Shown: in pieces, positions 5,747 to 58,700 of the stretch
How positions within the stretch are numbered: position 1 is the first letter of the stretch
How the letters are laid out: every line of letters starts with the position of its first letter
From: Paraspadella gotoi
Lineage: Eukaryota; Animalia; Chaetognatha
Length of the DNA stretch: 64,000 nucleotides
Assembly: GCA_051294375.1 (NCBI GenBank)
Contig: CM119265.1
Coordinates: 14,980,963-15,044,962, forward strand
Reading direction: 5' to 3'
Notes under the pieces: generated by a model
What the model was told of the DNA's origin: nothing
What the model saw: the letters and a program-made list of their open reading frames with translations, nothing else
The model's database searches: none
Program-made: the position numbers and the translations under genes

Positions 5747-6736
5747 TGTGGCGGTATATTCACACCGCCTCACGTCCACCATCCTTCAGCCAAATCCATT
5801 GGCTCAGAGGGGGAACACACCATCGCAAAGCCAACAGTGAGATGCCCCATCCCAATGGGCATCACAGGCAACCCGGCTGTTCCCATAAGTGGTGAGCCCT
5901 ACTATCGAACATGCAACCTTCTCAGGGTACGCTACAACAAACGCCTATGCCCTGCTGACTTCGGGTACGCTATGACAAATGCCTATGCCCCTGGGGTATG
6001 CTACGACAAATGCCTATGCTCCCACAACTCACGCTCTCTCTCCCACTATGGTAACTGTCTGGTCAGACACCTCTAAGGCTGCAGGAACCTGAGTGGTGTC
6101 TTGGCCGGGGATCCTGTGGCGGTATATTCACACCGCCTCACGTCCACCATCCTTCAGCCAAATCCATTGGCTCAGAGGGGAACACACCATCCAAAGCCAA
6201 CAGTGAGATGCCCCATCCCAATGGGCATCACAGGCAACCCGGCTGTTCCCATAAGTGGTGAGCCCTACTATCGAACATGCAACCTTCTCAGGGTACGCTA
6301 AAACAAACGCCTATGCCCTGCTGACTTCGGGTACGCTATGACAAACGCCTATGCCCCTGGGGTATGCTACGACAAACGCCTATGCTCCCACAACTCACGC
6401 TCTCTCTCCCACTATGGTAACAGTCTGGTCAGACACCTCTAAGGCTGCAGGAACCTGAGTGGTGTCTTGGCCCGGGGATCCTGTGGCGGTATATTCACAC
6501 CGCCTCACGTCCACAATCCTTCAGCCAAATCCATTGACTCAGAAGGGGAACACACCATCCCAGGCGTAGTGTTCCATCCACAGTCCTATTGACTTCCCTC
6601 TGCGTTGGCAAAGCTAGACCGTCCTTGGGTAACCGCGCCAGTGACTGGAGGCGTCACTGAGGGTCGGAAGCCCCCAAAGCCAACGGTGAGATGCCCCATC
6701 CCAATGGGCATGACAGGCAACCCGGCTGTTGCCATA
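5747..6736 (+). mobile_element. Tandem-array TRIM / LTR-retrozyme-like element, family A (LTR-int-LTR-int-LTR)
   Basis: LTRs at 5747-5887, 6115-6253 and 6482-6736 start TGTGGC and end (G/C)CCATA, period about 367 bp. PBS-like TGGTGAGCCCTAC follows LTR1 (5890) and LTR2 (6256). Flanks GTAC/ATAC give an imperfect 4-bp TSD. No long ORF. Confidence 0.85.
6603..6685 (+). ncRNA. Twister ribozyme motif, type P5 (in LTR3)
   Basis: CGTTGGC[P5] AAA GCTA GACCG TCCTTGGG TAA CCGC GCC AGTGAC-tggaggc-GTCACT[P3] G AGGG-TCGGAAGC-CCCC[P4/L4] AAA GCCAACG[P5]. T1 is CGG/CCG and T2 is GC/GC. Predicted cleavage U^A between 6630 and 6631. Confidence 0.75.
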
Positions 6737-7247
6737 ATACCTCATTTTAAAATATGAAACCTGTATATAGTATAGAGCCACTTTCCTTTGGGGCGAAAGC
6801 CCGGGTTTACAATTTTTTCTCTTGCGTACTCAGAGATGGGTACACTTTTTGCTGATTTTGAAATAATTGTAAACCTGGCCTTCCTTCGTAGTAGCGGTAC
6901 TTTTAATTGAGCTCATTGGGCAGGAGAGCACTACGAACTATTTGAAACATTTCAAGTGTGAAAGTTTGAGAAAATTTGGCGAATAAGATGTGCACATTTT
7001 CCTGAAAAATCAAAAGAAAACTAACTGATGAATTGAAAAAAAATTTCATGATAGTTTTATCTTGGTTCAGGATCAATTTTCAATAGAAAAAATAAAAAGG
7101 AAACAAATGTTGAAAATGCAAAAACGGTACAAAAAGGAGTTACACTTGCAGTTAATAAATCTATCTAGAATATTTGCAAGGAGAGAATAGTAAATGAAGG
7201 TAATCTTTACATATCTATCAATAGTTGTTCCTCGAACTTCAGACGTT

Positions 7248-10200
7248 TCACATGCGTCTTGCAATCACTTTTAACAACTCTGAGATAATTTTGCTCTGTT
7301 CCGCAACCAAGTTAAGCAATAAGTTAGGATCTACTTGGTTTACACTTCCAGAGAGCCACGGTAAAGGTGGACTGGGCGAAGATGAGCCAGGAACTAACTC
7401 CATACCGGTAACTGATCGGTTGAACGATAAACTGTGACTGAAAAGTCGCCCTTCTATTTCTCGCACTCGCGCCTCGAGGAGATTGGCTGAGAAGTCAGCC
7501 GAGACGGCAATATCGTATCTGCCTGGATATGAAGATTGAGATTCTACCGGAAGTGAAGAAATTATCTCGGAATCATGGGCCAGTAAAAGATCTGGGGCTT
7601 GACCACTGGCGGGATCATTGGCAATGGCGCATGCATTGGGACCCAGATTTTGTTGGACAGAAGGGGCTTTCGTTGAAAGTAAATTTCTTTCTGAATCTGC
7701 GTAACCAATGTATAAGGAAGATTTTTTTTCCGTGGAAAGATTCGTGGATGATTCAAAAAAATTATTTTCTAAGGAAAACGATGTAGAAAATTCAGATTTT
7801 GGTAACCCAGAGCAGAGCGCGACCCCATTTTCGTCACTTGAAGTAAACATCGTTGTGGCAACCCCAATAGGGCTGGGCGACTTATAATCGCTGGGACCGT
7901 CTGGCGTTATTTGCGAAAAAATGGTATCCGGTAGAGAAGAAACCTCTTCAACTGAGAAAGTAATAAAATAATTAAATCGAGTAAAATAGGCAAACAGTAA
8001 TTCTCGCAAGCAAAATTTCCGTAAGAATGAATTTAAAAATCAAGAATTGAATATATAATAGATTCTTTTCTGACCGACCAAAACATTTTTAGCCCCGAAA
8101 TGACATGTTCTATGGATTCGTCTGATCAAGGGCTGTTGATTGGTGCCCATTTCATTTTTTTTTTAAATATAGTACGGGGTGGATCAAGAGCGTCAAAGTG
8201 CTACGAGCTTCAAATATCATCTGGAGTTTTAAGGTTTTTATTTATTTTATAAATAAAAAAGTTTATTTTAACATACTTTTTACAATTTGATTTGTTTTGG
8301 CAACGAATTGTATTTAAAGCAGACATGCTTCGACTCGAGAGAGAGAGAGAGAGACAGAGAGAAAGAGGGAGAGTTTCCAACAAAGAATTGAGTAAAGGAC
8401 AGTGGTCAGATGTGAGGACAGGTGAAGGTAAGGACAGGGGAGGAGTGAGTTTGGTGAAATTTGAAATTGAGAGAGAATGGGAGAGAGAGAAAAATCTTTA
8501 CATTTGACAATGTACAACAATATACTTTTTAATATTTTTACCCAAGAAAATATAAGAATAAACGTGAACATTTATATTTTTATTATTAAAACTAATACTA
8601 ATAAAGGTTGCTTCCGGTTTTTCAGCATCAAAAATACTTTCTATACTTTTCAGGTTTAGCAAATTCAAAAAACAGCAGCAGAACGATTATGCACAATTAT
8701 TGCTTAATTTTCAAAAAGCTTTTAGCAATAGCTTAATTTAGTTGCTTTGGAATGCTCTTTCTGTACTGCTCTTGGTCGCGGGTTGTTCTTATTCTTCCAT
8801 TTCAAATTTCACTTATAACTCATTAGCTAACTTATTTCATCTTATTGTTATTATTAGTCTAATTTTAAGTTTGCCTAATCTTTATTGTAAATTGCCAAAT
8901 GTAATGATTTATCTCTCTCTCACTTTTCACCATTCAATTTAACTGTTCTTACCTTCACCTGTCCTCATATTTGACCACTGTCCTTTCTCAATTCTTGGTT
9001 GGAAACTTTCTTTCTCTCTCTCTCTCCCTTTGGCCCTCTCTCTCTCACTCAATGTTTGCAGAGAAAAAACTCAAAAAACAAAGGTAAAAAGAGTCGAAAC
9101 ATGTCCGATCACTCCGATGTACCAATACTAAATAATTCGTTGTTTTTCCCCATTAAAACTGTTTTTCCTTAAATAGGCTATTACTATAAAGAAAATTAAT
9201 GATACTGTTATACAAAATTTATTTGAAAAGAGGCTTAATTATTTTTTATTACATATACAAAGGTAGCAAAAAAATATACTTCCATCGCTCAATCTTTTCA
9301 TCATTCCACCCTACTGTACATGACCTTTCTATCAAATATCACCAAAAGTTATGCATTATTATTCGAGATATCATTTAAAACGTAAGTAGGACAGTCGGCG
9401 AGTATTATTCTGATTATAAATAAATGACGTAATGGACCCGCAATTTTACGATATTTTTTAAAAAGCTGGCACAAAGCAAAGAAAACTTACTTTTTACTGC
9501 ATGTAGAGCTGAGGCAGTCTTCGGCGGATGCAACGCTAATATTCGAGCTTTTTCGGAAAGTGTAGGAGATGCAGGAGCGCGTAAACTCGCTGAGTAGAGA
9601 GTAAGTAATTATCACCAAACGACAATGATAAACAGTTCACTTAGATGATTGAACCGGAGGCAAGTCATTCTATTCCCAACCAAAAGGTCTGGGTCAGAGA
9701 CCAAAAGCCGTTACGAGAGTTGGAGCGGTTAACCCGCCTCTAGCATGGTGCCACTGCCTAATCCGATGCTCAGGGATTGCTACGTGATTTATAATATAGT
9801 TTGGCCATTAATTTATAACAATTATTCTGAGATAAGAAACGTTTTGTTTTCAAAACGAATTTTTTAATGAACAAATCACAGACATGTTTCGGTCTTGATT
9901 TGTTTGATTTGTTCATTGAAAAATTCGTTTTTAAAACAAAGAAAACTTTTCTTATCTCAAATTCCAAAGAAAAGAAAAAGAAAGGAAAAATATACTAACA
10001 ATTATTCTGTCTCTTCAATTTATTAATTCCCCCTGTCTCCCCCAAGTCCTTTACTTCTTAAGAATATTATGAAATTGGTACAACCAATATAAAAATTATC
10101 CATTCATTCAATAAATAAGCTATCTTGCCCCTGACTTTGGACAGGCTTTGGTGGTTTAAGGCCTCCATCACTCTTACAAGATAATGAAATAGCAGGTCCC

Positions 10201-13200
10201 TGCAAGCTTTCAATCAAGACTCTCTCACAGTCTCGTTTATTCACTCCCAGAGTACCTGGCTTCCCTATCAATGAAGTGGTATAATATTTCAAAGAATGTT
10301 TCAATTGTATGAAAAGACCACTCCCTTATGTAAGACTTATCGAAAATTAAAAAGTGTACTTTAAAGTATTTTAATTTTGTTACTTTCGGGTAAATCGTTG
10401 ACGCTTTGGCAGGCAGAAACTGCGAACCTCTTGTGCACCATTATGTCAGGAAACACGATATCAGCTATGCCGTTTGTATTCCATAATGCCACCTCATAAT
10501 GAGGTCTAAATAAAAGGTAAGCAAGATGAGATTAAACTACCATTCATTTTGTTATTGAAGGGATACTAGTATTACTTACGGATAGTCTGCAGAAATAGTT
10601 CTTGGTTTGCACCATACTTCTTCTTCCTTAAGAGATTCGAAAAAAAATTCTTTTGCCTCGGCAGACCAAGACACTCCATTAGCTAGAAAAAGGGCTTTGA
10701 TAACATTATATCTTTTTTTGGGTTTTTATTGTCAACAATGATCGGTTTGTCATTCTGCCCTTTACCTTTACCCAAAAAGTTTTGGCAAAAACATTTTTAT
10801 AAGTAATATAAAACTTACCCGGAACGTTTAGGCCCATTGCCAAAGAAGCCGTTAAGGCCTGAATTGGTAAATCTAAAAATTTATGTTTGAGAAACCGAAC
10901 AGCGTGAATAGGAACGAAATTCACACCCCCATAGTCGACCCAAAACACTTTGTACTGCTTCTCATTATCGATATGGTAGGGACCGTCTTCGATCCGTCCA
11001 CGACAAAAGTTGTTATCAGGCGAAACAGCGATGCAAATACTTCCACGAACCATTAATTCTTCAGGCATAGAGTAGTGGATGCTCCGTTCTGAAAAAGCAA
11101 ACCAATGTATGAAAATTTGCAAATTACTTGTTTCACTATTTTCTATGTTAGTATGTTAGTTTTCTTCTCACGAAAGTAGTTTAAGGCAAAATCTTACTTA
11201 AATTTTGGTAAGATTCGGCTATTTGGTCCATCATGTAATCTAATTTTGAGTTAAAACCGCCTGAAATCATCTGGAGATGAAAGTGGTTAGGATCGTCAAT
11301 ATGGGATACATAGACGGGGTATGGTTTTCCAACTTCCATCACATAGGGACCAAGATACTTTTCGTCCGGCCTAACTATGTCTTCCGGAAATGAGCGCAAA
11401 TTTGACGACACCGAAAATAAAAAATGGTCGTTAAACGGAGAAGCCAATGATAATTGGCTAGAAATGCAAGCGACGTTGGTATTTTCGACATCGAAAGCTT
11501 CGACTTCTACTCTCTCGGGTTTACTCATGTTCTTCGACTGGAATGACTTGACGTAGGTTATTAACTGCGATTTAATAGAAATAAAGGGAAAATATTTAAT
11601 GGTGACGGTAGCCTAGAACTAGGCAAAATATCTACTTTAAATGTAAAAGAGTTTTTAGATTGTGAAGTATCATGGAATGCTCCGAGTAGTTGAATTAAAA
11701 AAAAAGACATCGATTTGGGATTCAGTGCTAATTTTTTTTTAAGACCATGCATTCAAACCATTTAACTAATTAATTGTTCAAGGCCAGAGAAATTGTGGTG
11801 AGGTTAAAAAATTATTTACAAGTAAGAGAAGGTGAGAGGAGGAGAGGAGACTTAGAGGGAGAGAGAAAGACACTCCTGATAGTTATGTGCAAAACCACAG
11901 CAAAATCGCTTTGCGTTTGCGACGAATAAAAATTAACAGTATCCCAAATCAATGTTTTTTTTAAAAAAGAGTTTTTAATCTAAATCCAATAAGGGAAGAC
12001 CGGGTAAAGATAGTGCTGTGCTGCAATGCTGATGAAGCTCGAAATCTGAGCCGAAACATGTCCAATTTTATCCAAAATTAAATTGTTTCTCGAAAATTTC
12101 GTTTCAACTAAAAAAAAATACACTTTACCATTTTTTATTTTTATTACATGTATAATATTGTATATTGTATATATTATTATATGTATATATTGTATATTGT
12201 ATAGACCAATGTCTTGTGTAATAATTTTATGAGTTTCTAATTAATTGTGAACCGCATTAAAGTACTGAATTTTTTTTTAAACTCACCATCTTACCCAATA
12301 GCGGGGAAAGATGGAGAGCTGAAACTGCTTTTTAAAAAAGATGCGACTTCAAATACAAACAATACAGCAAAGCATAAAAGCATCGAAACATCAAAGAACT
12401 TCTTTGAGAGACTATCTGTCTCCCTTCAGCGCGAGAATGGGGACCTGCTTGCTTCCCGAAGTCCCGTGATTGAGTTGCGCGCCTCATGTGGATGGAATTA
12501 CTTGACTTTATCCCCTGAACTACTCTTCTTATAAATTTCTTCTTTTTGGTTCACTTTTATTGTTAACATTAAAGGTTTTTTGCAACCATTCCCGCAATTA
12601 TATTTGTTTGCTCTGTTTTTTTTTTCAGAAAAAAAAATACAGCACTAACAAAAATGCATCATAGCATAACATGAAACGACGTAACTGCCATTCTTTGGCA
12701 AAAAGAAACCAAACATTAAAAAATACGAGAGAAAACAAAAACTGTAGCACGAAAGGATATCAATTCTCTTTAATTCAATCTTCACTCGTGAATTTGTATT
12801 AACTCATAGGCCATCTATTGGATTAAATCTGTAGCTTTTCGCATTATCTTGCTCGCAGCATTGACTAGAATGTTAATTTTTACATGTTATATCATGTCAT
12901 ATAATTACCATTGTTTAGAAACTATGTTCTTGTTTTTTAGTTGATTGCTTTATAAATTTAAATAGGTCTGGAATCAAATCAAATCAAACATTGATTTCTC
13001 TGGAAGCTTTTGCAGCGCCAATTTTTACATGACACATAGCAGCAATGGCCTTTTCCTAGGAATTTTCATTCAAACCACCTCTACTAGTTTTTCTAATTTA
13101 GTTTCTCATCATTATATCTAGCTATAACAGATCTAAAAAAAAAAATGATTTGTGCATCCCCATCTTGCCCCAGAAAATTTTTCCCATCTTATCCCAAAAT

Positions 13201-16200
13201 GCAAAAAACTGAAATTTCAATTTTTAAAATTTTTAAAATGTTGAAAGTGAAAACTATCTTCATGACATAGATAAACAATCTATAAAACAATACAGTACAT
13301 ATGCATGTCAAAAACCTTAAGTTGTCAGTGCTAAAATAAATAACAAAATGCAAAATTTTACATTTTTAGCATAACTTTTGTAAATGTAAAACCATCAGTT
13401 GGAAAGTTTATGGGTCATCCAAAGATGAGTAGTTGAAGTATCTTCAATCCGTTTTTGTTGTCTTAATAGGTTCATTTCGCTAAAATTACCAATCCCCATC
13501 TTACCCCATGTACCCGTCTTACCCAGTCTTCCCCTACGATTTTTAGTCGAATATTATTTTATAATATTATAAGCAATAAGATCTTTGTTAACAATGCTTC
13601 TCATCACAGGAATAGCAAACTCGAAGATTAAATGTTAAAACCTCTGGTGGATTAAAAGTTAAAACCCACTAACCGTTTCCAGCGGTCATTGGTGCAGGAG
13701 GAAAGTTATTCGCCTCCCAACCCAAAGGTCCGGGGTTCTAGCCCGACTCACAAAGGGACGGGGGACTTACCCCGCCCCTAACATGGTGTTACAGCCTGAT
13801 TCGAAGCTCAGGGACTGCTTATATTGAACGGTTCGATCACTCACTCATAACAATTATTCTGTCTCTTCAAACCTCGCTTTCATCGACGAAATGCCATCGA
13901 GAGTATGGAACAGGTTTTTGGGCTTGCATTAGGTAGAAATTCGGAAACTGCTTTGGATCATTATTTCCAAAAGCGTCCATGAAGAAAATTCTGAAATAAA
14001 ATCCTCCGAAGTTTAGGCCTAATTTAGAGTATTAGATTTTCCTTGGTTTGTAATTCTGAAAAACTAGACCTCCCACTTCGTTCTAGGTCAACGATTCGCC
14101 CATTGCAACATTTCCTTTTCAATGAAAATTTCCGAGCACAACTTACAAATCTGAGGGTTTGCCGACAGACGGTTTGACAGGGGAATTTTTTACGAAGATG
14201 TACAGACCATCCCTGCGATTTGAAGCCAGGTGCAAAGTCCACCTCGTAAAAACGTGCTCGGAAGTAAAGCTGCATAATAATTCCAACATATTTCCAAAAC
14301 CGAGCGACAACGGATTAATAGGAAAAGACGTTTTTTTGAGCAATTCATCTCCGAATTGTCCAAATAATATCCTAAAAATAAAACCGACACTATTAGTAGG
14401 TGTAGCCCAACTCAATGGGATGATTCAAAAATTTAGAGCGAGTACATGCTCAAACGAATATTTAGACATATTTAAGAATACTTTCAATGGACAAAAAATT
14501 TCTAATATGGCTCTATACCCAAGTAATTATTTTTGTAATATTTATTTATAGATACGAAAAGCGAAAAATTTTTTTCCTAATTTTAAAATTTTAAGACCAG
14601 ATTCAAATAGCTCATAAAAAGTTGTCTATACAAAATATAATTTTTAAAAATATATTTTTATGTAAAAAATCATCATCATCATCATCTTTCGATGATTTTA
14701 TCAGTTTTCACTTAGAAACCTTTAGAATTTTTAAAAGCTGTAATTATATTTCTTGTTTAACGATCGACTTGAAATTTTGTATTTGGTAGAAAAGTGTGTG
14801 ATTAAACTGGAAATCAAGTTTCGATGGAATCGTTTGAGTGGAAATGAGTTCAAATGGAAAAAACAAAAAAACTATTTCACTAATTGATTATGCTTCTTTT
14901 TCTTTTTCTTTTAAATGTAAATGCAAGATGTATTAATTAATCAAATAATTAATCAGTTAATTAATCAATTAGTCAATTAATTAATGAATAATTAATTAAT
15001 CAGTCAATAAATCAATCAAAACAAACATTTCGGATCAAATTAATTAATTAATTGCCTAATTAATTAAATAATTAACTTGAATAAATTAATTATTAATTAA
15101 ATAATTAACTTGAATAAATTAATTATTAATTAAATAATTAACTTGAATTAATTATTAATTAATTAATTAATTACCGAAAATGATCGTGGGCAGATCCGAC
15201 ATTGTTTACTCTAAATTGTTCCATTATTTGACCCACGTATCATCGAAATATTGAAAAACGCATTATTTTTTTATGGGCTATCTGAATCTGTTCTTAAAAA
15301 ATAAAATTATTATAAAATTTTTTTTCATTGTCTATGCATTGATAAATATTTAAATGCTTTAATGTTATACTGTGCTTCACGAGTTAAAAAAGTTATAGTA
15401 AATATTGATTAAGTATATGATGGACAAATGAATTTTATAATATAGAACTCTTAATGATAAAAAGTGATCAATTTTGGCTCGCCAAACACAATTTTTCTAG
15501 ATGCAATCTTATAATTTGAAGCCATTTCCATCATCACTTTGGCAGGGGCATGCCTTCCGGACTTAAACACTTAGGTTCTTGTTCTTTGTATATAATATAT
15601 ATATATATACAGTTATACACACTATATATACTAAGGTTTAGTAAAATTTCTAAATTTAACTTTAATTAAAATTCTAAAAGTGAGGAACGAACAACATTAT
15701 ACTAATGAACATTTATATTTAAAAAAAATTTATAAGAAATTTTACAATTTACGCAGTAGGCCATATTTATACTAGTACTATCCAATAAATGTTTAAATTT
15801 CAAAACAGTCTTTTCTAAGATTTTTTTGCAGATTTGGATTCGTCATAAAAAGTTGATAAAAAGAAATATAACTATTTTTGAAAAATTCCTTCATTAAGTA
15901 GGTCAAAAATTAGAAAAAACTATATTTTAAACTGAAAATTAACTTTTTATATATTAAATATAGTTTTTTTAATTTTTAACCCAGAAGAATTTTTAAAAAT
16001 GATTTATATTTTCTTTTATCAATTTTTGACGAGGAATTCAAATCTGCAATCAAAATTAAGAAAAGCCTATTTGAATTTTTTTGATTTTATAAGGATAGTA
16101 GTACTATATATAAATATAGCCTACTGCGAAAATTAAAAAACAAAATTAATTTTTTTACAAATTAATGTTTACTGACGGTATGTTGTTCATAATTGACTTT

Positions 16201-39855: not shown

Positions 39856-41359
39856 TCACCACTTTATATTCAAGGACGTCGTGTTTTTCTCAACTTCATG
39901 ATATTCGGTGCGGATAATTTTTTTTACAAATTTCTCCTCTCTCTTTAACCACGAATCAAAGACGTTTTTAGCTTCGTCATTGCTTTCAGGACTCCGCGCC
40001 GTCACGGACTGGTAGACTTCTGTCACTTTATCCAACAGCGCTCGGCTTTGATTTGCTCCGTTGTCTTTAATTTGTCCGCCGCCATTGAGGCACCCGGATG
40101 GGCACGCCATCACCTCGACGAAGTGATAACCCGTTCCGGCGCCACGTTTACCCCGTTTCATCTTTTGGACGAAGTTTTGAATGTTTCTGAAACCGTAGGC
40201 GGTGGCAAACTTGAGTTTTGTCTCGCCGTCGATAACCAGTGACGTCTCCCTGAAATCTCGGTTCCGCAGCGATTCAAACCGTACCTCGTCAACGTACCGA
40301 CTGAACAAGTCGGCGGCGGCGCGTCTGTAAACGAACTCGGCAAATCCTCCGGAGCCTCCGTCAGCGTGGCCAAAATAACCTAGCTGCTTTTCACCTATTT
40401 TCAAGACGGAATCCGGCGCCTCTCGTGGAAATTCGTTCAGAGACCTCGCGCCCAACATAGCCTCCACCTCTAGCGTTGTTAACACGCAGTCAACGTCACG
40501 GTTCTCCGATTCAACGTCCAAAAAGTCAGCGCGTGACGCTTCTAACTTTTTGTCGAAACAAGGCATGACGGTTACATGGTAGATTTTGTCCCGACTCTTT
40601 TGCAACGCTTCGGCCATCCAGACCTTTACCAATGAACCCATGATCTGTTGGGGGGATTTAGTTTTGGAGATGTATGGCAGAACAAAGTCACCGTGCGTCT
40701 TTTCGGCATAGCAAATCCATCCAGGGCAAGCGGAGGCAAGCATGGGTAAATCGCCGGGAGCGTTACGTTTGTATCGTTCGATAAACTCCCGTGAGGATTC
40801 TAGGAGGCTTAGGTCTTGGCCAACGGTTTCGTCAAATACATAGTCTACGCGCAACTGTTGCTTGAAGTACCCGACGAGTCTTTCGATAGCTTCGACGGCG
40901 TTGAGATCATATCGCGCCGCAAGGGAAGCGCGAGACTGAGGAGAGACGGTGACCGCAACTGTCAGAGAAGAAGCCTCGGCGGATGCGAGTACGCTATAGA
41001 AAGCGTCTTGACTTTGCTCGGCGATCAGAACGCTTTCTGCCGAAGTGACGCATCTGCCCACCGGAATCAAGAATTAATTTATAAAAAGGAAGTTGAGCAT
41101 AAATTCTTCAGCAAGATTTAGCAAACCCGCTGCATGCTAGACAATCGGCCAGCGTGATGGACGCCTTCTCCAACACGTTGCTCTGTCCTGTGTTTGCGTC
41201 GAGCTCCCGATAATCCCCGGTGACATCGATTGTTATTTTAGCGCGGCCTTTGCTCGACTCCGACTTTTTCTCTACTTTTACAGGCTTAATGCATTCTTGA
41301 GAAGGCGCTATGAAATCGTCTAGGTCCGTAAGACGCAAAGCGCCGCTAAATTGCGCCAT
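39856..41359 (-). CDS. CIAO3: Cytosolic Fe-S assembly factor NARFL/CIAO3 (Nar1), 2 exons
   Basis: [24 protein letters not shown]; [18 protein letters not shown]; [17 protein letters not shown]; [13 protein letters not shown]; [15 protein letters not shown]; C-terminal NIKW. Confidence 0.95.
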
Positions 41360-46308: not shown

Positions 46309-47306
46309 TATCGCGGCGACGGCAGTGGGGAATATGAAGCGCGAGTGAAGAGCGACGGACGGCAATGTAAAGTCATTCTTACCGAGTTTAATTAAGAGTT
46401 TTTATTCTAATAAGAAAAAAATAGGCGAAGATAAGAATTGAAAAGGTGAGAGAAAAATTTTGGATTTAGACAAGTTAGCCACTCTTTTGTTCGGTCGAAG
46501 TTTGTATCTTTTAATCCCGAGCATAGTTTGATAGATGGCGTTTCAGTCAGCAATCTTAGTCAGAAAGACATCGGGTTTTTAAATTACGCCTATTTTTTAA
46601 AAAATTGAGTTTAAAAGCGGGCTCGATCATCGGGACATATCGTCGAATGATAAGACCTATAATTGAAAAGAAGAACTTATATACAAATTTTATTTCTATT
46701 TACTTTTAAATAATTAACTGTGACTTTTAATAACAAATCAACAAGATAGATTGATCGTAAAATTTAGGTCGGATGTAATGTAACAAATGTACAGATTAAC
46801 AGGAATTTTAAAGAATAACGTTAAAGCGAGAAGTACTAAACAAAGATATGGATAAACTGGATGGCTAAAAAAAATTATCGCAAACAAGAATAGTCATACC
46901 CCCCACCTGTTTGGAACGTAATCCACAAAAAATGCATAACAATCGTGCCTGGAGAAGCGTGACCAGATTTTTTTTAATTGAAGCTTTACAACGAAAAAAT
47001 CACGATAGGAACGTAACGTCGGAAATATGAAGAAAAAAAACGAAAAAAATATTAAGAGAAAATTGTTATTTCCTCCTCGCGAAGTACGTTCAATTTTAAT
47101 TAAAGGCCAAAGCTCTTTATAATGATAATAAAACGTGCGCAATTCGGCCTTCGAGACCAAAACGAAAAAAAAAAGACCGAGAGTTTTGACATCGTCAGTT
47201 AGAAAAAAAAGCGACCGTCTCGAGTTACACACGGCGGCGGCAGGCGCTGGGATTATTCTCTTTCTTCGCTCCCTCGCTGACGCTGGCAAACTTCCCCTCG
47301 CTTCGG

Positions 47307-47536: not shown

Positions 47537-47781
47537 CATTTATAAAAAAGTTTAACATTGAAAAAAAAATTGTAATCGAGGGAAGTAATTATTTAAAAAT
47601 AAAAAAGACTAACCACGAATACTCGTTAATAAATAACCAAGACAAGGAGACAAAAGTTTTTTTCCCTATTTTCGATATAAAACTGAGAGGTCCTTTGGAA
47701 TGATTTTTTGTTTTCTCCTTTTTCTCATTCTTGTCGACGTTGTGTTTGATCGTCTTCCTCGTCGTCGTCCTCGTCGTCGCC

Positions 47782-50700
47782 TCAAAATGCGGCCTCGTGA
47801 AAGGATCGGACGGCTAGGGAGGCGGCGTCGGGGGGTGTGGCCGAAGCTGCTCGGCGATCGTCGCCGCTCCCGCCGGCTGCTGCCGCCGCCAAGTGCAGGT
47901 TTCGTAAATCGGTCAATGAGGAAGAGCGGAAGGGAGGTTTAACGCCACGCTTGAAATCCTGACGAGGCAAAAAAAAAAAAAGGTTCGGGGGTGTTGGTTG
48001 GTTGGCTCGCTGGCTGACTCTTTCTCTCTCTGCGACTCGCCTCGTAAGAGTCAATGTTGGAGTTGGCGTCGTTCTTTAAATCATTAAGGGCACGTCGAGA
48101 CGTTAAGGGGGCGATACGCCCCGGGCTCCGAGACAGCAATCGGGAATTCGAAGCTCCCTGAAATCCAAGGGAAAATTGTTTGTTACAATGTTATAAATCT
48201 ATTTGTTTTTCTCTATTTTCAAGCCTAAATTCTTATCTAAAGTTGTCCTTGTAATTTACAGGTACTAATAATATTGGTTATAACATTATAACATTCTGTT
48301 CGAAGACTCGCTAACAATAAAATAACACTAAAAAAATTATCGAATATAACACATATTAAAGTTAAGTCCAAATTGAATGCTTGAATTCACGATAAAGAAA
48401 AACTCATAAAAATTCGCCAGACATGGCATAAAACAGCGGCATCTTCAACCCACGCCGAATCGTGCGCCAAGACGAAAAAGTTGCCATTCCGGTTTTCCCT
48501 TTGGCTCGACACGGAGAACGAACTCGACTTTTCGGACAAAAAGGGACGCGAACATTAAACTGGCGTGGGACCTGACCTTTGATTTAGCCGGGCACGACAT
48601 CGGCACCGGCGGCCGGTAAGGCGAAAGCGCGAGTCGGATGCTGGAATGCGTCTGTTGAGTTGGGGTCATCGTCGACGCCTCCGCACCGTTGAGCTTTTGA
48701 GGAAAAGTTATACTAATATAATTAGAAAGTTCAAAATATTAACTTGATATTTTTTTCAGAAACTAAATAAATCTCTTAATTTATTATCCATTATTATATT
48801 ATATTGGCTGTAAAAAGATATAATATTTCTCAAGATACCAAAAAAAGGGGTTAACTATAAACCAAGTACAGATCCTAAAATTACAATACAGAGCCTAAAC
48901 TTAAAAGAAATGAATATTTGTTTAGATAATGGAATAAATGATTATAGACACGTGCAAAAAAAAAAAGAAAAAAAAAGCGCCACTTTAGAACTTTAAATTC
49001 CAGACACTCTATAAAAATATTTTTAGAGAAAAATAAAGTTTTTAAAAAAAGGAATTTATGTGTATAAATTTTATCAAAATCGGCCAAGTGGTTTAGGAGA
49101 TATGATTTTTTAAATCGTATAATGATTTCTTTTAGAATAAAAAGAATTTTATTCGAAAGTTTTAAAATCATTGACCTATCATTCGTATTATATTTTATTA
49201 ATCTTGATATTTTTATTTAGGGATCTCGGTCAATCTAGTTGTCCAGCTATCCCTCCTGATATCCAGGAAATTTTTTTTTTCATTTTTAATCTACTATAAA
49301 AAAAAAATATTAGTCTTAAATGAATCAAATTTCTTTATATTTAATTTGTTTTGGAGTACCTTATTCTGAAAAACTTACTCATCCCAAACGGATAGCCCAA
49401 TTTCTCTCAAATTTAAATCAAACTCAATCTTTTAATAAACTAATTTTAAAAAAAATTGAAGTATACAGGGCGATTTTTAAAAAGCTGAAATAAAGTGGCG
49501 CTTTTTTTTCACAAGACTTCAATCCTAGTTTATTTTTCCTTCCAAATACAAAATTTTGAAAATCGATTTACGGCCAAAAACGTACATAAGGTTTCCAATA
49601 AATTTTATTTAAAAGTTAATTTTCAACTGAGACAAAAAAATCCAACTGTGATCCAAATCCGATGATACGAAAGAAAAATTAATTATACGTAAACTGTACA
49701 CCAATAAGAAAAAATTATAATCCCATTTGAAAGAAAAAATGACATTTTTAAAAAGTTCAAAACATTGCTTAAAAACGCTTAAAAACATTCTAAAAATACT
49801 ATCCAAACCACTAACAAAAAAATTATTCTTCGTGGAGCAAAAAATCTTGTCCAAAAGCAGCTATAATTTTTTACTATTACAAATGTTGAATGCTGATAAC
49901 CACTTGTTATAAATTACCACAAGAAAAAAAATCAGATTTTACTCAGGTTAGCTAAGGGATAGCTAAGGAATATCCCCCTTCTCAAGCTATCTTTCGATAA
50001 AAATTTAGGTAAACTTTTATGCAGCCGATGCTGTGATGCACTGGTCACTCTATCGAGCTTAAACTACCAATTTTTCAAATTGTATTGCCATAAGCCACTC
50101 CTGTTTCTTCAGTTTATATGCGAATTATAGGCAGTGAATACCCATCGTCGTCTTGCCAATAATCAATTTGTCACTGAAAAGCAGTCTTAAGGCTGAGTAT
50201 CATTCTCTCAGGCCACAAAAGGTTTATGGACAAAAGGTTTATGGACAGTAGTGGCAAAAAAGCACCAATATTTTCTGTACCAGGGTCTTCAAAACTTAAA
50301 CAAAATTGTTTATTGCAATCGATTTTTAACAAATACGATTCGCCGACAATTGAGCATTTTAACATCTTCGTACGAAATTATAATGGATTAAAATAAAATT
50401 TATACATAAAAAACGTCAAAAGGTTATATTATGGCAACAGCCAGGTTGCCTGTGATGCCCATTGGGATGGGGCATCTCACTGTTGGCTTTGGGGCTTCCG
50501 ACCCTCAGTAGCCTCCAGTCACTGGCGCGGTTACCCTAGGACGGTCTCGCTTTGCCCAGCAGAGGGAAGTCGTTAGGACTGTGGATGAACACTACGCCTG
50601 GGATGGTGTGTTCCCCCCTTTGAGCCAATGGATTTGGCTGAAGGATGGTGGGCGGGAGGCCGGTGTGAATATACCGCCACAGGATCCCCGGGCTAAGACA

Positions 50701-53700
50701 TCACTCGGTTCCTCAAGCCTGAGAGGTGTCCGACAAGACTGTTACCATAGTGGGAGAGAAAGCGTGAGTTGTGAGGGCATAGGCGTTTGTCGTAGCATAT
50801 CCCAGGGGCATAGGCGTTTTCGTAGCGTACCCTGAGAAGGTTGCGTGTTTGTAGTAGGGGTCACCACTTATGGCAACAGCCGGGTTGCCTGTGATGCCCA
50901 CCAGGATGGGGCATTTCACTGTTGGCCCTGGGGCATCCGACCCCCAGTGACGTCCCCAGCCACCGGCGCGGTCACCCCAGGACGGTCTCACTTTGCCAAC
51001 GCAGAGGGAAGTCATGTAGGATTGTGGATGGAACACTACGCCTGGGATGGTGTGTTCCTCCCTCTGAGCCAATGGATTTGGCTGAAGGATAGTGGGCGTG
51101 AGGCGGTGTGAATATACCGCCACAATATATGATTTTAAAAAATCTTTGTGTATAAACTTTCGTTACGTTACTATCAAAGAAAATTAATAAAAAAATCCGA
51201 AAAAAAAGGAATGATTGATGTAATAGTAATTGATTATTGATGCGATGTTAACCAAATATTGATGCGATGTTAACCAAATATTGATGCGATAACCAAATAT
51301 TGATGCGATGATAACCAATAATTCATACGATACGGCCCTTATCCCGTCTGGCGAGATAAAAATGAGTGAATCTATCTCATCTCAGTAAAGTACGGCAGTG
51401 GTTTCTTTCGTATCATCGGAACTTTGGGAAAGACGGAAAAAAAATTCTTGTAACTCTAAAAGGGGTTGCCCAAATAAATTTTGCTATGATGATCCAAAGA
51501 CTTATCCAGCTTTCCCTTCATTATTTTTTTTGAGGGGGACTACGACTCTCCGGGTGCATCAACAGTAAGAATAGTGAACATTTTTTCTTACATTATCTTA
51601 GCTTTTAGGTCAAACCTATTTGCTTTCCCTTACCAAAAAGTATGCTTAAACTCTCGGATAAGTTTCAAATCTCATTTCATGGTGTCCAGTTGCCCCATTG
51701 CAGTTCCTCATGCCATTACGGAGTTCATTAATATCAATACTTAACCTAAACTATATATTTAATTTTAATTCCCTAATGACTATACACGTGCTAAGTACTT
51801 TTTGTAATAATTAAAAAAGTCAATAGAAAAACAACACCCCATACTAGAAAATAATCCACGAAATGAATGCAATTTATAGGGAAAAAAATTCTATCTACCT
51901 TGGGAAACTTTCTACCCAAGGTCGGAGTCAGACACCCCGGCCTTGATTCTTCCTGAAACGTGGAAAAAGAACGTATCGGTGTAAACAGTTTTAGAAATTT
52001 TTTTAAAACGAAATTTCGTTTAAAAGTACTTACTCTTTGTCTTTTGGTGGGAGTCTTGGCGTTGCTAGGAGTGTTGGTATTAGAGGGGAGAGCGCCACAG
52101 AATCGACGCTTTGTCGGCGTCTTAGGGCGACTGCCAAATGTCATCTCGACTTCCGTTTCACGCTGTTTCTTTCGCAAACGAGACTCACGTTCCTGACCAA
52201 ACCACCAATTAACATTTAACAATACTAACATTCTATTACTAAAGACAAAAAAGCAAGTTGTCGAAGGTTCTTACTCATAATTGAAAACTTACCATTTGCT
52301 TTTCGACCTCGTGATTCTCCCTCTGTCTTGTGACGTATTCTTTATAACCAATCCCGCAGACTTGAAACTGCCGCCCATTTTCCGACTCCCAGGCATGGAT
52401 CTGTATCTCCAATTCTTTTTCCACCTTGGGCAACTTAACGGCCAGCTTGTTTCGTTCCTTCTCTTCCTGCAGTAAGAAAAATGTTTCGATAAAATGGCCT
52501 ATTGTGGCAGCAAGACTTAAAAGCTGCCTCACTGCTGTCCTTCCTCAGCTCGTCTCAATGGCCGAGCAGGCTAATCTACTCATTCATCCGTCCGGCGTCC
52601 GCGTTCAATCTGGGTATCCCGGTTCTGGCTTAAGGTTGACGGTGGCCGGTATAAACATGCCAGTGACAGGGAGGCGTCACTGAGGGTGCGCAGACCCTAC
52701 GGGCCAGTTGGTGGATCCGCCGCCGCCCCGGTTATCAAGGCTATCCTTCCGCGTTGCCATACTATCCTTTAAATTAAGGACTAAAAGTCTGAATACTAAG
52801 TTTAACCTGCAACAGTCCCCCTCCTCGATTGACGAAACGGTTAGGGTCATTTGCTCTTTTCTCAAACTGCAGAAACTGGGTCCACATCATTTCCCAACAT
52901 TCTACCGCCTAAAAATGAACAAAAATGTAACAAACAGTTAATTTTTTCTCAAGGGAAATCATAACATTTTTTATTTTATACACCTGAAACAATCTCTGGT
53001 GCTCCTCGTAGTAGATTTTAAGAAAATCTAATTCCTTTTCGTGAACATCCAACAACTGTTCGTTATAATCTTCATCTTGAAATCCCAGAAAAGCTTCCTT
53101 CTGATCCTCGCTGTTAAAAAAAGGCGATGAGAAAAAAATAAAAAAATCGAATAACAGACACAGTTGCATAAGTAAACGTTATGTAACTAACCTATAGTAA
53201 CACTTGTTCCAGTATTCTTTAATTTGATTACGTAATTTTTCAATAAGTTTTCCCAAATTTGCCCTGCGAAGTTCCTTCATTTGCTGAACTTTTTCCTTAA
53301 AATTGTCGATAACCTGCAATTGGATAAGATTCGTCAATTGCATCATATTTTAAATTATAATACCGAGTAAACGTCTTCGTCATACATATATAATATATAC
53401 GTTAAAGTATAGCACTGTAGTACTTAACTACTTAAGTTTTCCCCGGTTTTTTTTCAAAGAAACTAAGCATTTCACGATTATATGCGATAATTTTTATTTT
53501 TAGGTAAATTGGTAAAGTTCTCCGCCATCATATGACACTCCCCACTCCCGAGACCTGCTGACGGCACCCTTGGTTGTCTTCGATAAACTGCCGTTTAATG
53601 TCGTCTGTAACATCCAGTTGGTCCCAGAGTACGATCAGTCTTCCCTTTAATTCGGCTATGGCCGATCGCCGTTGAGACTCAATCTCTTCCAAATCCTAAC

Positions 53701-54529
53701 AAAGCGATTTCCAAGAACACAATTTAATGTCCGGAACTGATATAGAATAAAAAAATTAACAAAATTTTCTTCGATTTAACTCACCTGACAATATTTTCTC
53801 AGCCCCTCCATATTCCTGGAGTTAAGATCGAAGGATTCTTCGTCCTCGGCAAGAATGTCTCCCTGAAACGTATTGTCGGGAGTCACTCCAACGGCGTCGA
53901 GCAATTTGACTATGTTCCTCTTGAGAATCTTGAATTCTTCTTTCCGCTCTTTTAAAGTTCTTTTCATCAAATCAATGTGAGCCTCGAGTTCTTTGAGCAC
54001 GTCGCGAGAAGGTACGGTATTGGGACGAATGGCATATGGTATCTCCCCCAACTGGTCGGAGAGCGCTTCGTCCACGTTGACGAGAGCCTCCACTTCCTTC
54101 ATACGCTCCGCTTTTTCTTCGCGTAACTTTTGAAGTTCTTTGGGAAGAATGCTGTTTAATTGGAAAGGGGTCGCGTGTTCGGGGGGCTACCGAAAGGGGG
54201 AACTTGTTATTACAGGAGGGAGACTGACCAAAAAAAAAAAAATAATTTACTTCGTAAGGTGCGAGATTGAGTTCGTCGCACAAGGCGGCGATCTTCTGGG
54301 CCAACTGCTCGATCCTTTTCTCGATCTTTGACTTGAGTTCCTCCTCTTCGTTAACGAGGCCCTTGAGAAATTCCTCGACATGGAGAACGACTCCGTTGGT
54401 TCTTTCCATCATGGACTTGGCGTCGAGGCCAAGCGTGTGCCAAATCATGCACATGTGAGTCACGTCCTTGGAGACGCCGGCAACGAGCGCCTCGCGCAAA
54501 CGATCCTCAGATTGACGAATTTGCGACAT
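47782..54529 (-). CDS. PRC1: Protein regulator of cytokinesis 1 (PRC1/MAP65/Ase1/Feo), multi-exon
   Basis: Coiled-coil N-terminus; ANDPNRFVNRGGGLLQEEKERNKLAVKLPKVEKEL...WESENGRQF; EMTFGSRPKTPTKRR. Tentative 3' exons include SNIDSYE|DF and end ...HEAAF* at 47782. Confidence 0.88.
50482..50560 (-). ncRNA. Twister ribozyme motif, type P5 (3' LTR)
   Basis: GGGC AAA GCGA GACCG TCCTAGGG TAA CCGC GCC AGTGACtggaggcTACT G AGGG TCGGAAGC CCC AAA GCCAAC. Core is intact, P3 and P5 are partly eroded. Confidence 0.7.
50921..51000 (-). ncRNA. Mutated twister motif (5' LTR)
   Basis: GTTGGC AAA GTGA GACCG TCCTGGGG TGA CCGC GCC GGTGGC...GTCACT G GGGG TCGGATGC CCC...GCCAAC. UAA is changed to UGA and L4 AAGC to AUGC, so it is probably inactive. 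Confidence 0.6.
51235..51320 (+). repeat. Short tandem repeat (about 22-bp unit tattgatgcgatgttaaccaaa, about 4 copies)
   Basis: Direct reading. It is followed by gtctggcgagataaaaa, which is also seen at about 18887. Confidence 0.7.
52503..52761 (+). mobile_element. Solo LTR of a divergent family-A subfamily with degenerate twister motif, in a PRC1 intron
   Basis: TGTGGC...TTGCCATA ends and a perfect CTAT TSD. Twister-like 52625-52707: CTGGC..GACGG TGGCCGGTA TAA ACAT GCC AGTGAC..GTCACT G AGGG TGCGCAGA CCCT..GCCAG. Confidence 0.75.
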
Positions 54530-55048
54530 TTCGTCGACAGGCGCGTAAATAACGTTCTTAGTTATGATACACGGGATTTTAATTAGCACGGTTTCGAAGA
54601 GGATTACATCTTCTGGTAAACGAATTCTGGGGGATAAGAGGATACAGTAAAAAGCGAATAGATCAACAAATATAAATAATGTCGACTTAAAAAACTATAC
54701 TTAATGTAATCAACAAATTGAAATTTAATTTCCTTAAATTGACAGAATATAATGTAAGAAATGTTGATTGTTTGTATGTGTGTGAATAATCAACGATAAG
54801 GCAACGAGTTCAATAGTGAATACGTTGGTCTACGTAAACAGAATAATAATTTAGGACAGTCCAATGATAAAAAATTAAAAAACAGAAAAAAATGCAAATA
54901 GGGTAAATATTCTTGGCAGGTCAATTTCGGATATCACAAAACGCTTTTTGAAATTACTGGAAATTACACGAAAAAGATTTTTTCAAAATTATATTGAATA
55001 TATTGTATAAAATAATGTGTTAAACTAGAGGCACATTAATGAATTTAT

Positions 55049-55664
55049 TGTAGCGGTAGTATTTCATACTCCGTTACTCGTCCGAGAATCAGCAGCGCCT
55101 TAGGACTCGCGTTCGCGCCCTGCTGATTCACACAAGAAAGCGCGACGGGGCGTCTCACCCACCGGTAGTGACGGACTACAGCCCGATCCAAAGTTCGGGA
55201 ACTTGTGTGCAACGGACGGTGAACTGCTCACATCATCATCTTCCACATTGGTGAGCCCAAACGAACACGCTGGGACGTTAATACACCTCTGCCCGGACAT
55301 GTTAACACACCTCTACCCTCGACCAGGAGACGGGAGCAGGAATAGGCAGTCCCCTAGAGTGCTCAGGTACAACGTGTGCATCAGAGCCATCACACTTGCG
55401 CGGGTTTGTGATGTCTAGGGGGGGGGATGTGTAGTGGTAGTATTTCAAACCCCATTACTCGTCCGAGAATCAGCAGCACCTATAGCGCCGGAGATAGCAC
55501 GAGCTCCTCCAAACCCAAAGGACTCCGGTTCGCGCCCTGCTGATTCACACAAAAAAGCGCGACAGGGCGTCTAATCCACCTGTAGTGACGGACAACAGCC
55601 GGATCCAAAGTTCGGAAACTTGTGTGCAACGGACAGTGAACTGCTCGCGGCATCGTCTTCCACA
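55049..55664 (+). mobile_element. Complete TRIM / LTR-retrozyme-like element, family B
   Basis: LTRs 55049-55247 and 55430-55664 (TGTAG...TTCCACA), PBS TGGTGAGCCCA at 55249, PPT AGGGGGGGGGA at 55417-55427 and a perfect TTAT TSD. Twister-like motifs at 55129-55209 and 55546-55626. Confidence 0.9.
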
Positions 55665-55713
55665 TTATCCATGTAAAAAGTAATCAGCCCTGCTTCCAAT
55701 ATTCGAAACGAAA

Positions 55714-58700
55714 TCATTTATACCTCCTAACTCCATCAACAGTCATTGGACGAGTAAAAATTGTAGGTTTGGGATTTATCTCGACGTTACAGTTTTCGGA
55801 TTCGGCCATTTGGCATAAAATAGTTTCGGTTTTAGGACCGTCACCTTTCCCCATCATTGCCACTGTCCTTAGGTCCTCTTTATCTTCTCTTTTCATTGAC
55901 AGAAAGCTTTTCATTAAGGCCATCTCTTGACGGTGGTTGAGCAGGCGTTCTAGGTCAGCCGCCATTTCAATTTGGATGCCTTGAAGACGATCCCGTTCGG
56001 TTGACAGTCGTTCGATGTCTTGCACAAGGACGGCCGACTGTTCTTTGAGATTTTTAATCTGGACAAATACAAATCTTGGCTAGTTTTTCCGCAAAGTTTT
56101 GACAAAAATTATAGTTTTCATAAATTTCACCTCTTGATCTTTTATTTTCACTGTCTGGATAATGTAACCGTAGGGTTGTTGCGAATCTTCAATGGCTTGG
56201 TTCGCCTTTTCTAACTCTTCTGTAAGCGCCTTCCTTGTTTCGTCTGCAGCTTCAAGAGCCCTTCTTTGAGAGACGTTGGCGCGCTCTAACGCTAAAACGC
56301 GGCGAGCCAGGTGGACGCTCTGCATAGTGCGACGTCGCGCAGAGGAAGGAACGTTGGCACCATAACCATAGGCGAATAAAATCTGAGCAGTGGATTCACA
56401 ATGTTTAAAACTAATAAGTAAAAAACCAGCCTTATTATTTAATTTCATCTTAAGCACCTTATCGGCTTGGGCGTCGTCCTCCAATTCCGCACATTGCATC
56501 ACAACCTGGTCCATTTCCTTCTCTAAGTGTTCGTATACCTCGAGTTTGTCTTTTAAGGTCTTGCATTTCTGTGTCAGCTCTGTGTTGTGCCTCTCCAAAG
56601 ACGTTCGCTCATCAAAGTATTCCTTTGTCGACTTCTCCAGCTTCGAGGCTAAGCTTACGGTCTCTCGTCGCAAATCGTTTGAGATTTGTTGGGCCTGCTC
56701 GTAAAGCACTTGGAGGTTTTCAAATTCAAAGGTCTTCAAACGAAGTTCGTTGGCGGCGGCGGCGCTTTTGGCGTCTGCGTCGATCCGCACCATTTTTGAT
56801 TCGTCTTGGAGAGAAGCGACCTTTTCCGCCAGACGTTTAGCGGAGGCCACCGCTTCCTCCTTTTCGGCTAAAGCCAACTCCTTAGTCTCCCGCAGACCGT
56901 GATTTTCACGGTCATAAAGTTCTCGAATGGAGGCGCGCACGCGGTCGACTTCGTGAGAGGTCCGAAGTTTCAGCGAATCTAATTCATTCTGTAAAGGATC
57001 CTTCTTTGTAGCATTGAACGCGAATTACTAACTCTAAGAGGGCCCACCTTTAATTTTTCCTCATACTGGTTCTTCGATTCTTCCCGTGACAGCACGTATT
57101 TTTCGTACATTTGCTCGCGACTCTCCTTAGCTTTCTCGAGATCTTCGTTGGCTTTGCGCAATTTTTCCTCGGAAAAACTACATCGATTGTCCAAATCCCT
57201 GAGTGAAGAGGGAATAAGTAGAAATTTATGAAGAAATTCGTTGAACGAAAAAAAAACCTTTTTCGCTTCGCCCATTTTAATACAGGGACTTCCATCAGGA
57301 GTGATAAGAAAAGACTTTATTAAACTCGTAATTCTCTCAGTTCATATTATTTTTATAAATCTTATTAGTTAGAAAACGTTTATTTTGACCTAAATTTTTT
57401 TTTCATTTACTAACAGTAGAACCACAGTGGATCACAAGTGCGGAGTTACTTTTCTTCATTTTTTCTTTCAAACTTTAACAGTTAATTTTTAACGCAGATT
57501 GTAAAGTTATTTAATATAAAAATAAAAATTTTTGATGATAGAAAATTATAAAAATTAATAAAAACTTGGTGATTAGTTTTTATTAAAAAGAAAAGTAAAA
57601 ACTAACATATTTTCTATTGGTTCAGAGGGGGAACGCACCATCCCAGGCGTTGCGTTCCATCCACACTTCCCTCTGGGTTGGCAAAGCGAGAGCGTCCTGG
57701 GGTAACCGCGCCAGTGACATAGGTGTCACTGAGGGTCGGTAGCCGCCAAAGACAACTGTGAGATGCCCCATCCCAATGGGCATCACAGGTAACCCGGCTG
57801 TTGCCATACTTTCATAATTTTTTTTCAAAGTGAAATTTTTATTTTTAATTGATTTTAAAGGGAAAAAGTTATAATGATTAAGTATTATTTATAATAAACA
57901 AATCTGTTTTATTTCTGGTTTGTGATACATTTACTACAGTATCATATTAATAAAAAACTGAACCATGACAAAAATTGTTTTAATAGGAAGTGAAGGATTA
58001 ATAGTAAAGTCCTCTTACAAAGTAAACTGCCACAGTACGAAAAAAACATGCAGTGAAATTATAAAGTCACCTGATCTGCCTTTCGAAATATTCCTTGTCT
58101 TGGGCCATGAGGGCGTTCTCTTGCCGCAGATTCCCGTTCTCGCGCGCCAAAGACTCCACCTCTTTGGAAAGTTTCTTCGTTTCGACTTCCAAAAATTCCC
58201 ATTTTTCGTGGACCACCTGGTGACGCCTTTTGAGATCGTCGAGTTCCTCTTTGACGACGTCGTAGTTTTCTTTTTTGAAGTCCCTTTGTTTTGTGGAGAG
58301 TTCAGTCTCCTTCAACTTGGACTCGACCTCCTTCAGTGACTTGGTCAGACGGTTCTTCTCGTCATCTCGTCGGAGTAGGGTTTCTCTAAGGCCGTAAAGT
58401 TCTCTGCCCAGGGAGTCACGTGCCTCCATCGCCGACGCGCGAGCGAGTTTTAACGACTCCACCTCATCTCGCAGTGGCTTCACTACCTCGTAGACCCTCA
58501 TCCCGACGACGTCCTTGATCGGGAGGGAGGATTCGTCGCGTCGTCGCAGCTCAGAATATCGCTTGTCAGACACGAAAAGATCCCGGGTGAGGTTTCTCTC
58601 TAGATTGCCGGCCTTGAGCCGCAGTTCTTCGTTGGAGGCTTCCAAAGTCTCCTGCGCCTCGAGGACAGCCTTAATCTCCGTCCGCGTTTTGTCTCGGGAG

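Follow-up and report, generated by a model that had tools for sequence, protein, structure and literature searches.

A stretch of 64,000 nt from the genome of the chaetognath Paraspadella gotoi (contig CM119265.1, positions 14,980,963 to 15,044,962), referred to below as the window, contains multi-copy, non-coding miniature long terminal repeat (LTR) retrotransposons whose LTRs carry a motif similar to the type P5 twister ribozyme. The motif is very probably derived from a twister, and there are good grounds in its sequence to expect that the intact copies cleave themselves. On balance, we also favor the view that the elements are LTR retrozymes: cleavage in both LTRs would release a unit of 417–441 nt, which would be closed into a circle and then copied and integrated by machinery of the CsRn1 type. 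All positions are those of the window.

The LTR elements and their twister-like motif

The original prediction named five insertions. All five are present where it placed them, and two further families, D and E, were overlooked (Table 1). The elements A1, A2, B and C are miniature elements or solo LTRs as had been claimed; the fifth insertion, A3, is a 5′-truncated LTR of family A with neither a TG start nor a TSD. The target site duplications (TSDs) are the ones given earlier, including the imperfect one of A1, and a primer-binding site (PBS) beginning with TGG follows each 5′ LTR. A1, A2, B and C start with TGT and end with ATA or ACA. Families A and B, together with C in its solo form, show the characters of miniature terminal-repeat retrotransposons (TRIMs), which are a length below 1 kb, two LTRs, ends of the TG..CA type and a TSD. 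Coding capacity is absent: the longest ATG-initiated open reading frames (ORFs) in the elements comprise 66–100 aa, and Pfam returned no match for the three element ORFs scanned. An endless ORF like that of the Zeta virus was considered and rejected; the unit lengths of 441 and 417 nt are multiples of three, yet stop codons occur in every circular frame.

The first two LTRs of A1 share a deletion of 114 nt that removed the entire motif. They are identical across 139 aligned columns, and the two internal regions are 98.2% identical. The segment 5747–6481 is a near-perfect tandem duplication with a period of 366–368 nt, in which a ribozyme-less LTR and an internal region are repeated in front of the full LTR. 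Local duplication or the copying of a deleted circle may have produced it, the two being indistinguishable. Identity between the two LTRs is only 90.4% in A2 and 89.4% in B, so these copies are old or have recombined.

The order and the pairing of the motif were read by a scripted parse. The order P5-AAA-P2-GA-T1-P1-UAA-P2′-T2-C-[P3]-G-P4-L4-P4′-P5′ recurs in every one of the nine LTRs of families A–D that bear a motif. The stems P2, P4 and the closing P5 of the type P5 twister are thereby present in permuted order around the cleavage site U^A. These features are the published twister features (PMC5408937) and are also contained in the Rfam consensus. The motif lies on the strand of the PBS wherever a PBS is present, and the predicted cut falls within a full LTR after about 150 nt; the cut position proposed earlier for A1 agrees with the parse. 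The claim that each full LTR contains GCC and, in the loop L4, AAGC holds literally for family A only. Families B and D use ACC and AAGU, which still pair, and L4 is broken in the C copy.

The pseudoknot T1, which consists of three base pairs between L1 and L4, is complete in A1 LTR3, in both LTRs of A2 and in D1 and D2, and it is broken in the A3, B and C copies. It is formed by CCG/CGG in family A and by UGG/CCA in family D, both of which pair; a third type, common to B and C, pairs in other copies. The pseudoknot T2 is complete (two of two pairs) in eight of the nine motifs of families A–D. It is GC/GC in A and E and AC/GU in B and D. Both pseudoknots thus change in a compensatory manner between families. 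The catalytic G, the cleavage-site A and the U and AA of L4 are all kept in A1 LTR3, A2 LTR2, B LTR2 and D1, and at least one of them has been lost in each of the other five motifs of families A–D. The stem P2 is short or mismatched in A, B, D and E. In published tests twisters tolerated flaws in P1, P2 and P4 and did not tolerate flaws in the pseudoknots and catalytic bases (PMC11662667). The parts that are kept within the families, the pseudoknots and the catalytic bases, agree with these tests. Replacement of the cleavage-site A by C or U abolished activity in published tests.

Family D, a putative LTR family, gives the top twister match of the window and is the deepest repeat in the sequencing runs compared below. 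No TSD was seen at D1 or D2. Other copies of this family have a fixed 3′ end and a common sequence upstream, and the 5′ end lies further upstream. One joint in the DNA run X4 links the 3′ end of family D back to its start, which corresponds to a tandem form. For family E, no clear termini or TSD were found at E1 and E2.

Table 1. Elements, motifs and primer-binding sites in the window
Feature	Position	Strand	Description
A1, family A element	5747..6736	+	three LTRs, two internal regions; imperfect TSD GTAC/ATAC
A1 LTR1	5747-5887	+	deleted LTR
A1 internal 1	5888-6114	+	PBS 5890-5899
A1 LTR2	6115-6253	+	deleted LTR
A1 internal 2	6254-6481	+	PBS 6256-6265
A1 LTR3	6482-6736	+	full LTR
A1 LTR3 motif	6604..6684	+	P5-type with P3; P2 has one extra mismatch; predicted cut 6630/6631
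E2, family E copy	9635..9827	+	decayed; 57 bits with E1 profile
D1, family D copy	10068..10345	-	motif intact, no P3; predicted cut 10158/10157
E1, family E copy	13690..13816	+	decayed relative of B; T2 G-C/C-G; nhmmer with B profile, E-value 2.6e-6
A2, family A element	50430..51124	-	LTR1 51124-50869, internal 50868-50682, LTR2 50681-50430; TSD ATAT
A2 LTR1 motif	50918..51002	-	cleavage-site A changed (50973), L4 one base short; likely inactive
A2 PBS	50857..50866	-	CsRn1/tRNA-Trp type
A2 LTR2 motif	50479..50560	-	core intact, slight damage in P3 and P5; predicted cut 50533/50532
C, solo LTR	52503..52761	+	diverged relative of A; TSD CTAT
C motif	52622-52712	+	P2 and L4 damaged
B, family B element	55049..55664	+	LTR1 55049-55247, internal 55248-55429, LTR2 55430-55664; TSD TTAT
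B LTR1 motif	55129..55210	+	T2 A-U/C-G; cleavage-site A changed (55156); T1 mismatch (55190)
B PBS	55249-55258	+	equivalent to A2 PBS
B LTR2 motif	55546..55627	+	predicted cut 55572/55573; two T1 mismatches
A3, family A LTR	57613..57808	+	5′-truncated; no TG start or TSD
A3 motif	57675-57759	+	decayed
D2, family D copy	62985..63219	+	5′-truncated, in intron of intermediate-filament gene; motif 63101-63168

Tests of the motif and copies elsewhere in the genome

D1 is the only match to the Rfam model Twister-P5. It scores 25.8 bits (gathering threshold 37.6), with an E-value of 0.32 over the window and of 0.0015 in a local scan of 291 nt. The A1 LTR3 motif matches the twister-P1 model at 6636–6679 with 15.2 bits, far below the gathering threshold of 67.2. 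No hammerhead match was obtained in seven Rfam scans.

The score of each LTR with a loose motif descriptor was compared with dinucleotide shuffles of that LTR. None of 200 shuffles reached the real score for six of the nine LTRs; the score was reached by 1 of 200 for B LTR2, 2 of 200 for C and 8 of 200 for A3. Over the whole window this descriptor is non-specific and yields about 470–520 matches per shuffled window, with scores of up to 39. A strict descriptor, written after the motifs had been seen, found five of the eleven motifs and had no match in 100 block-shuffled windows; its count of misses was 0 for A2 LTR2 and 1 for A1 LTR3. In a gap-free alignment of B and E, two-sided changes affect 5 of the 20 pairs, among them T2, compared with 0–1 in slid controls, and the covariation score was reached by 10 of 500 shuffles. 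A model built from family A alone scores the C copy with 29.4 bits (E-value 4.4e-6). MAFFT did not align B and D with A and C, and the pairing across families was taken from the scripted parse. Nested minimum free energy folds of the motifs recovered P5, P3 and P4 only partly, with z scores from −0.4 to −2.0. A pattern describing the P3 hairpin of A and C had one match each in metagenome and viral contigs; both were rejected, as they lie inside apparent protein-coding DNA and have no motif. The family D pattern had no match in viral contigs.

Contigs of two DNA runs (X4 and X5) and two RNA runs (X8 and X9) were compared over 52450–55300 and 57550–63300, a range that has A1 and A2 outside it. 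Such contigs reveal no ends, strand, level or circles. Among the matches listed, most other copies have the letter expected of the motif at 11 of the 12 covered positions where a window copy is broken, with 93–99% of the X4 depth. The restored breaks comprise all four in A3 (T1, L4, P4 and P5), both in C (P2), both in D2 (P2 and L4) and three of the four in B LTR1 (the cleavage-site A, T1 and P3). Flaws that are family-wide, such as the A-C mismatch at the top of P2 in family A, stay in the other copies, and one X8 contig of B has breaks of its own. An amplified master copy under purifying selection gives rise to such a pattern. The copies are numerous: at least 132 X4 contigs leave the 3′ end of family A into unlike flanks and at least 123 leave that of family D, and the two ends of B are left by at least 25 and at least 20. 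The summed X4 depth exceeds that of single-copy DNA by roughly three to four orders of magnitude; this sum measures neither copy number nor expression. Contigs of the RNA runs cover all four families. In X4 and X5 the site of the C element is found empty with a single CTAT (the joint skips 52473–52769), which confirms the TSD and shows that the insertion is polymorphic.

Proposed cycle and alternatives

The PBS is TGGTGAGCCC in A1 and B and TGGTGACCCC in A2. A polypurine tract (PPT) is clear in B at about 55417–55427. Elements of the CsRn1 clade of Ty3/Gypsy have the PBS TGGTGA(G/C)CCC.., which is complementary to tRNA-Trp, the termini TGT..ATA or AAA and TSDs of 4 bp (PMC2582038). The PBS, the termini and the TSDs of the elements described here all match this clade, and to judge from these characters the elements are likely to be mobilized by a Gypsy partner of the CsRn1 type. 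The dependence on Gypsy proposed earlier is supported to this extent; the autonomous partner itself was not observed, and no autonomous CsRn1 element with gag-pol is present within the 64-kb window. CsRn1 elements are autonomous and encode gag-pol, and the available part of PMC2582038 neither sought nor mentioned a ribozyme in them. The partner may also carry one.

We propose that an intact element would be transcribed through and that its RNA would be cut at U^A in each LTR, possibly aided by pairing between the two P1 stretches. A host RNA ligase would close the unit of 417–441 nt, as proposed for other retrozymes. tRNA-Trp would prime at the PBS, reverse transcription beyond one round would restore two LTRs, and the product would be integrated by CsRn1-type machinery with a TSD of 4 bp. 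Circularity matters here since an RNA cut in both LTRs lacks a terminal repeat, and ordinary strong-stop transfer would fail unless the RNA were circular. The unit lengths predicted earlier, about 440 and 417 nt, correspond to 441 nt in A2 and 417 nt in B; the 5′ ribozyme is damaged in both of these elements. The wider claim of an animal LTR retrozyme that uses twister gains from the pseudoknot changes, the core seen in other copies and the D1 match; cleavage and circles were not observed.

The P1 stretch between T1 and the cut is 6–9 nt long. None of the P1 words folds alone as a hairpin, and each forms a duplex with itself at −5.9 to −11.1 kcal/mol. As a self-complementary word P1 measures 6–8 nt in families A–D, and it is fully self-complementary in B, in D and in three of the four A copies. 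One additional base stands in the P1 of the C copy; it is missing from nearly all of the X5 and X8 depth, from half of the X9 depth and from only 8% of the X4 depth; in both decayed E copies P1 is not fully palindromic. Amphibian hammerheads with a helix of 1 bp and a palindromic tetraloop act as dimers (PMC7229834). By analogy, the palindromic P1 stretches of two LTRs may pair and form a double twister. P1 is dispensable in published twisters (PMC11662667, PMC5408937), which weakens the need for such a structure. In its fullest form the proposal would comprise at least four to five families of animal LTR retrozymes, mobilized by CsRn1 elements, in which the double twister would ensure that only complete two-LTR transcripts are cut efficiently and circularize. 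We put this form forward tentatively, with the probability leaning against it.

A number of observations weigh against the retrozyme interpretation. No element in the window has two intact motifs: A2 LTR1 and B LTR1 no longer have the A at the cleavage site, T1 is broken in B LTR2, and A1 contains two LTRs without a ribozyme. Several departures from the twister consensus are family-wide. An A-C mismatch tops P2 in all four A copies, P2′ is only 3 nt long in B, D and E, and T2 has A-U instead of G-C in B and D. P4 is closed by G-C in A, C and D and by A-U in B and E; the closing G-C pair is described as "essentially invariant" in the twister consensus (PMC5408937). The Rfam check suggested with the original prediction produced sub-threshold matches in two of six local scans only, and none at gathering; the local scans of C, A2 LTR2, B LTR1 and E1 had no twister match. 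Part of these missing matches may be explained by the Rfam P5 model, which has no P3 arm. As for covariation, also suggested earlier as a check, two-sided changes occur between families, in both pseudoknots and in the B/E alignment, and there is none among the four copies of family A, in which 94% of cells pair. The B/E alignment has only four related rows, and its count of two-sided pairs was reached by 159 of 500 shuffles. The model built from A had no match to families B, D or E. Among the other copies, the P2 break of B LTR1 is restored in only 21% of the X4 depth, three L4 breaks of C lie outside the contig coverage, and one loose end from an RNA run pairs in T1 and T2 but has the base C at two conserved L4 places. 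In family A, the 3′ LTR is preceded by no more than a short purine tract. The unit circles predicted for the decayed copies A2 and B do not surpass shuffled sequences in stability (z −0.3 and −0.6) and are 60–62% paired; animal and plant retrozymes are reported to be more than 70% paired (PMC4918200).

The last of these observations leads to the alternative that survives best, which we nevertheless regard as unlikely: an active twister that works on linear RNA. A cut confined to the 5′ LTR would release the element from read-through transcripts of the host; the RNA, still terminally redundant over about 100 nt, would then replicate in the ordinary manner of TRIMs, without a circle. The ribozyme would then substitute for a promoter, as in R2 and Perere-3; twister variants of Perere-3 process the 5′ end (PMC8501958). 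The lack of excess structure in the predicted circles fits this explanation, as does the location of B, C, A3 and D2 among spliced and trans-spliced host genes, and a monomer could cut alone given that P1 is dispensable in published tests. However, the motif is present in both LTRs, and its 3′ copy would have to be kept inactive. Cooperation of two LTRs accounts better for the self-complementary P1 of families A–D, and the PPT of family A is poor.

It is still less probable that the motif is a noncatalytic relic of an ancestral LTR, perhaps that of the autonomous partner, which spread in plain TRIMs and solo LTRs. Such a relic would account for the absence of a window element with two intact motifs, for the duplicated ribozyme-less unit of A1, and for the sub-threshold Rfam scores and the family-wide departures from the consensus. 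It would not lead one to expect that the catalytic and pseudoknot letters lost in the window are still present in the majority of other copies (11 of 12, among the matches listed), or that divergent families retain both pseudoknots through two-sided changes. Chance resemblance in GC-rich, hairpin-rich LTRs has been largely refuted already and is very improbable, for although the loose descriptor finds hundreds of high-scoring matches in shuffled windows, composition-matched LTR shuffles seldom reach the real scores, the strict descriptor finds nothing in shuffled windows, the Rfam match on D1 is independent and the same motif order recurs in five families.

Genomic neighborhood and relation to known systems

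Protein domains encoded in the window include those of the DC-STAMP, Tudor and intermediate-filament types. Contigs of the RNA runs X8 and X9 skip introns. At 54626 and 60676, X8 contigs carry a tail of 15 nt that corresponds to the 3′ end of the chaetognath spliced leader SL2, the sequence of which is given in Table 3 of PMC2481426; the tails are joined at AG acceptors. Judged by this sequence match, they represent trans-splicing, and the trans-spliced genes are probably organized in operons. The insertions at 52503–52761, 55049–55664, 57613–57808 and 62985–63219 are all antisense to the surrounding minus-strand genes. Such an orientation would be predicted if a ribozyme in the sense direction cleaved the pre-mRNA, although an antisense bias is common among intronic LTR elements in any case.

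Other features of the window are a probable miniature inverted-repeat transposable element at 8394–8986, with inverted arms of 44 nt that lie 505 nt apart and GA/CT-rich flanks, and two long uninterrupted ORFs on the minus strand, both apparently intronless amid intron-rich neighbors. The ORF at 39856–41073 encodes a NARF-like protein with an Fe-hydrogenase domain, and that at 44323–46401 encodes a GH35 beta-galactosidase. Further dispersed AT-rich repeats are located at 14387–14870, 19490–19728, 32607–32724, 35772–36628 and 49169–49286. ARAGORN found no tRNA within the window.

The elements resemble the LTR retrozymes of plants (PMC4918200) in being non-coding, in the order LTR-internal-LTR, the 4-bp TSD, the PBS and the ribozyme in each LTR, and also in the occurrence of solo and multimeric forms, the inferred Gypsy partner and a G+C content of 55–58%. 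The plant elements differ in using a type III hammerhead and a tRNA-Met PBS, where the present ones have a twister P5-like motif, a tRNA-Trp-type PBS and an animal host. Their unit measures 600–1000 nt; here the LTRs are 200–260 nt and the unit 417–441 nt long. Of the characters that define the plant elements, neither the type III hammerhead nor the highly self-paired unit is found here. The non-LTR retrozymes of animals (PMC7229834; bioRxiv 10.64898/2026.07.22.740005) are likewise non-autonomous and ribozyme-bearing, with a similar unit size. In contrast to the elements of P. gotoi, they are tandem repeats with type I hammerheads, have no LTR, PBS, PPT or 4-bp TSD and are associated with Penelope-like elements. 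The T-variants of Perere-3 from Schistosoma (PMC8501958) are also a case of a twister-class ribozyme that serves an animal retrotransposon, but Perere-3 is an autonomous non-LTR element of the RTE type with a single ribozyme at its 5′ end and no LTR or circle. The TRIMs Helenus and Ajax (PMC10886601) are, like the elements described here, short, non-coding LTR elements of animals. Animal Helenus elements have 4-bp TSDs and a Gypsy-like PBS, in some cases of the tRNA-Trp type. The LTRs of Helenus and Ajax contain promoters derived from tRNA or 5S, and no ribozymes according to the available part of that paper.

Reviews and the 2026 preprint, in the parts available, distinguish two kinds of retrozyme, the plant kind with LTRs and type III hammerheads and the animal kind with type I hammerheads and no LTRs. 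Type III hammerheads in unpublished insect elements are mentioned in PMC7761336, and LTR reverse transcriptase domains were noted downstream of 1.6% of twister variants, with no analysis in the available part of PMC8501958. The searchable literature, outside of which lie subscription papers, the original twister paper, the supplement of PMC11662667 and Repbase/Dfam, yielded no twister in LTRs, no animal LTR retrozymes and no chaetognath ribozymes. In the original prediction, too, no description of this combination was known. Chaetognaths are bred in the laboratory. In a published genome of the phylum, about 80% of the repeats are unclassified (PMC12460157).

If the retrozyme interpretation is correct, the strategy of placing a ribozyme in the LTR, forming a circle and borrowing the machinery of a Gypsy element would have arisen anew with a different class of ribozyme and a different tRNA as primer. 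The elements would be the first ribozyme-bearing LTR elements described from an animal, and a double twister, if formed, would be the counterpart of the double hammerhead. Natural twister variants with an A-U pair in T2, a P2′ of 3 nt and a palindromic P1, which are missed by Rfam, would be added to the class. Finally, the thousands of unexplained twisters of animals would gain a testable role, with a named clade as the partner.

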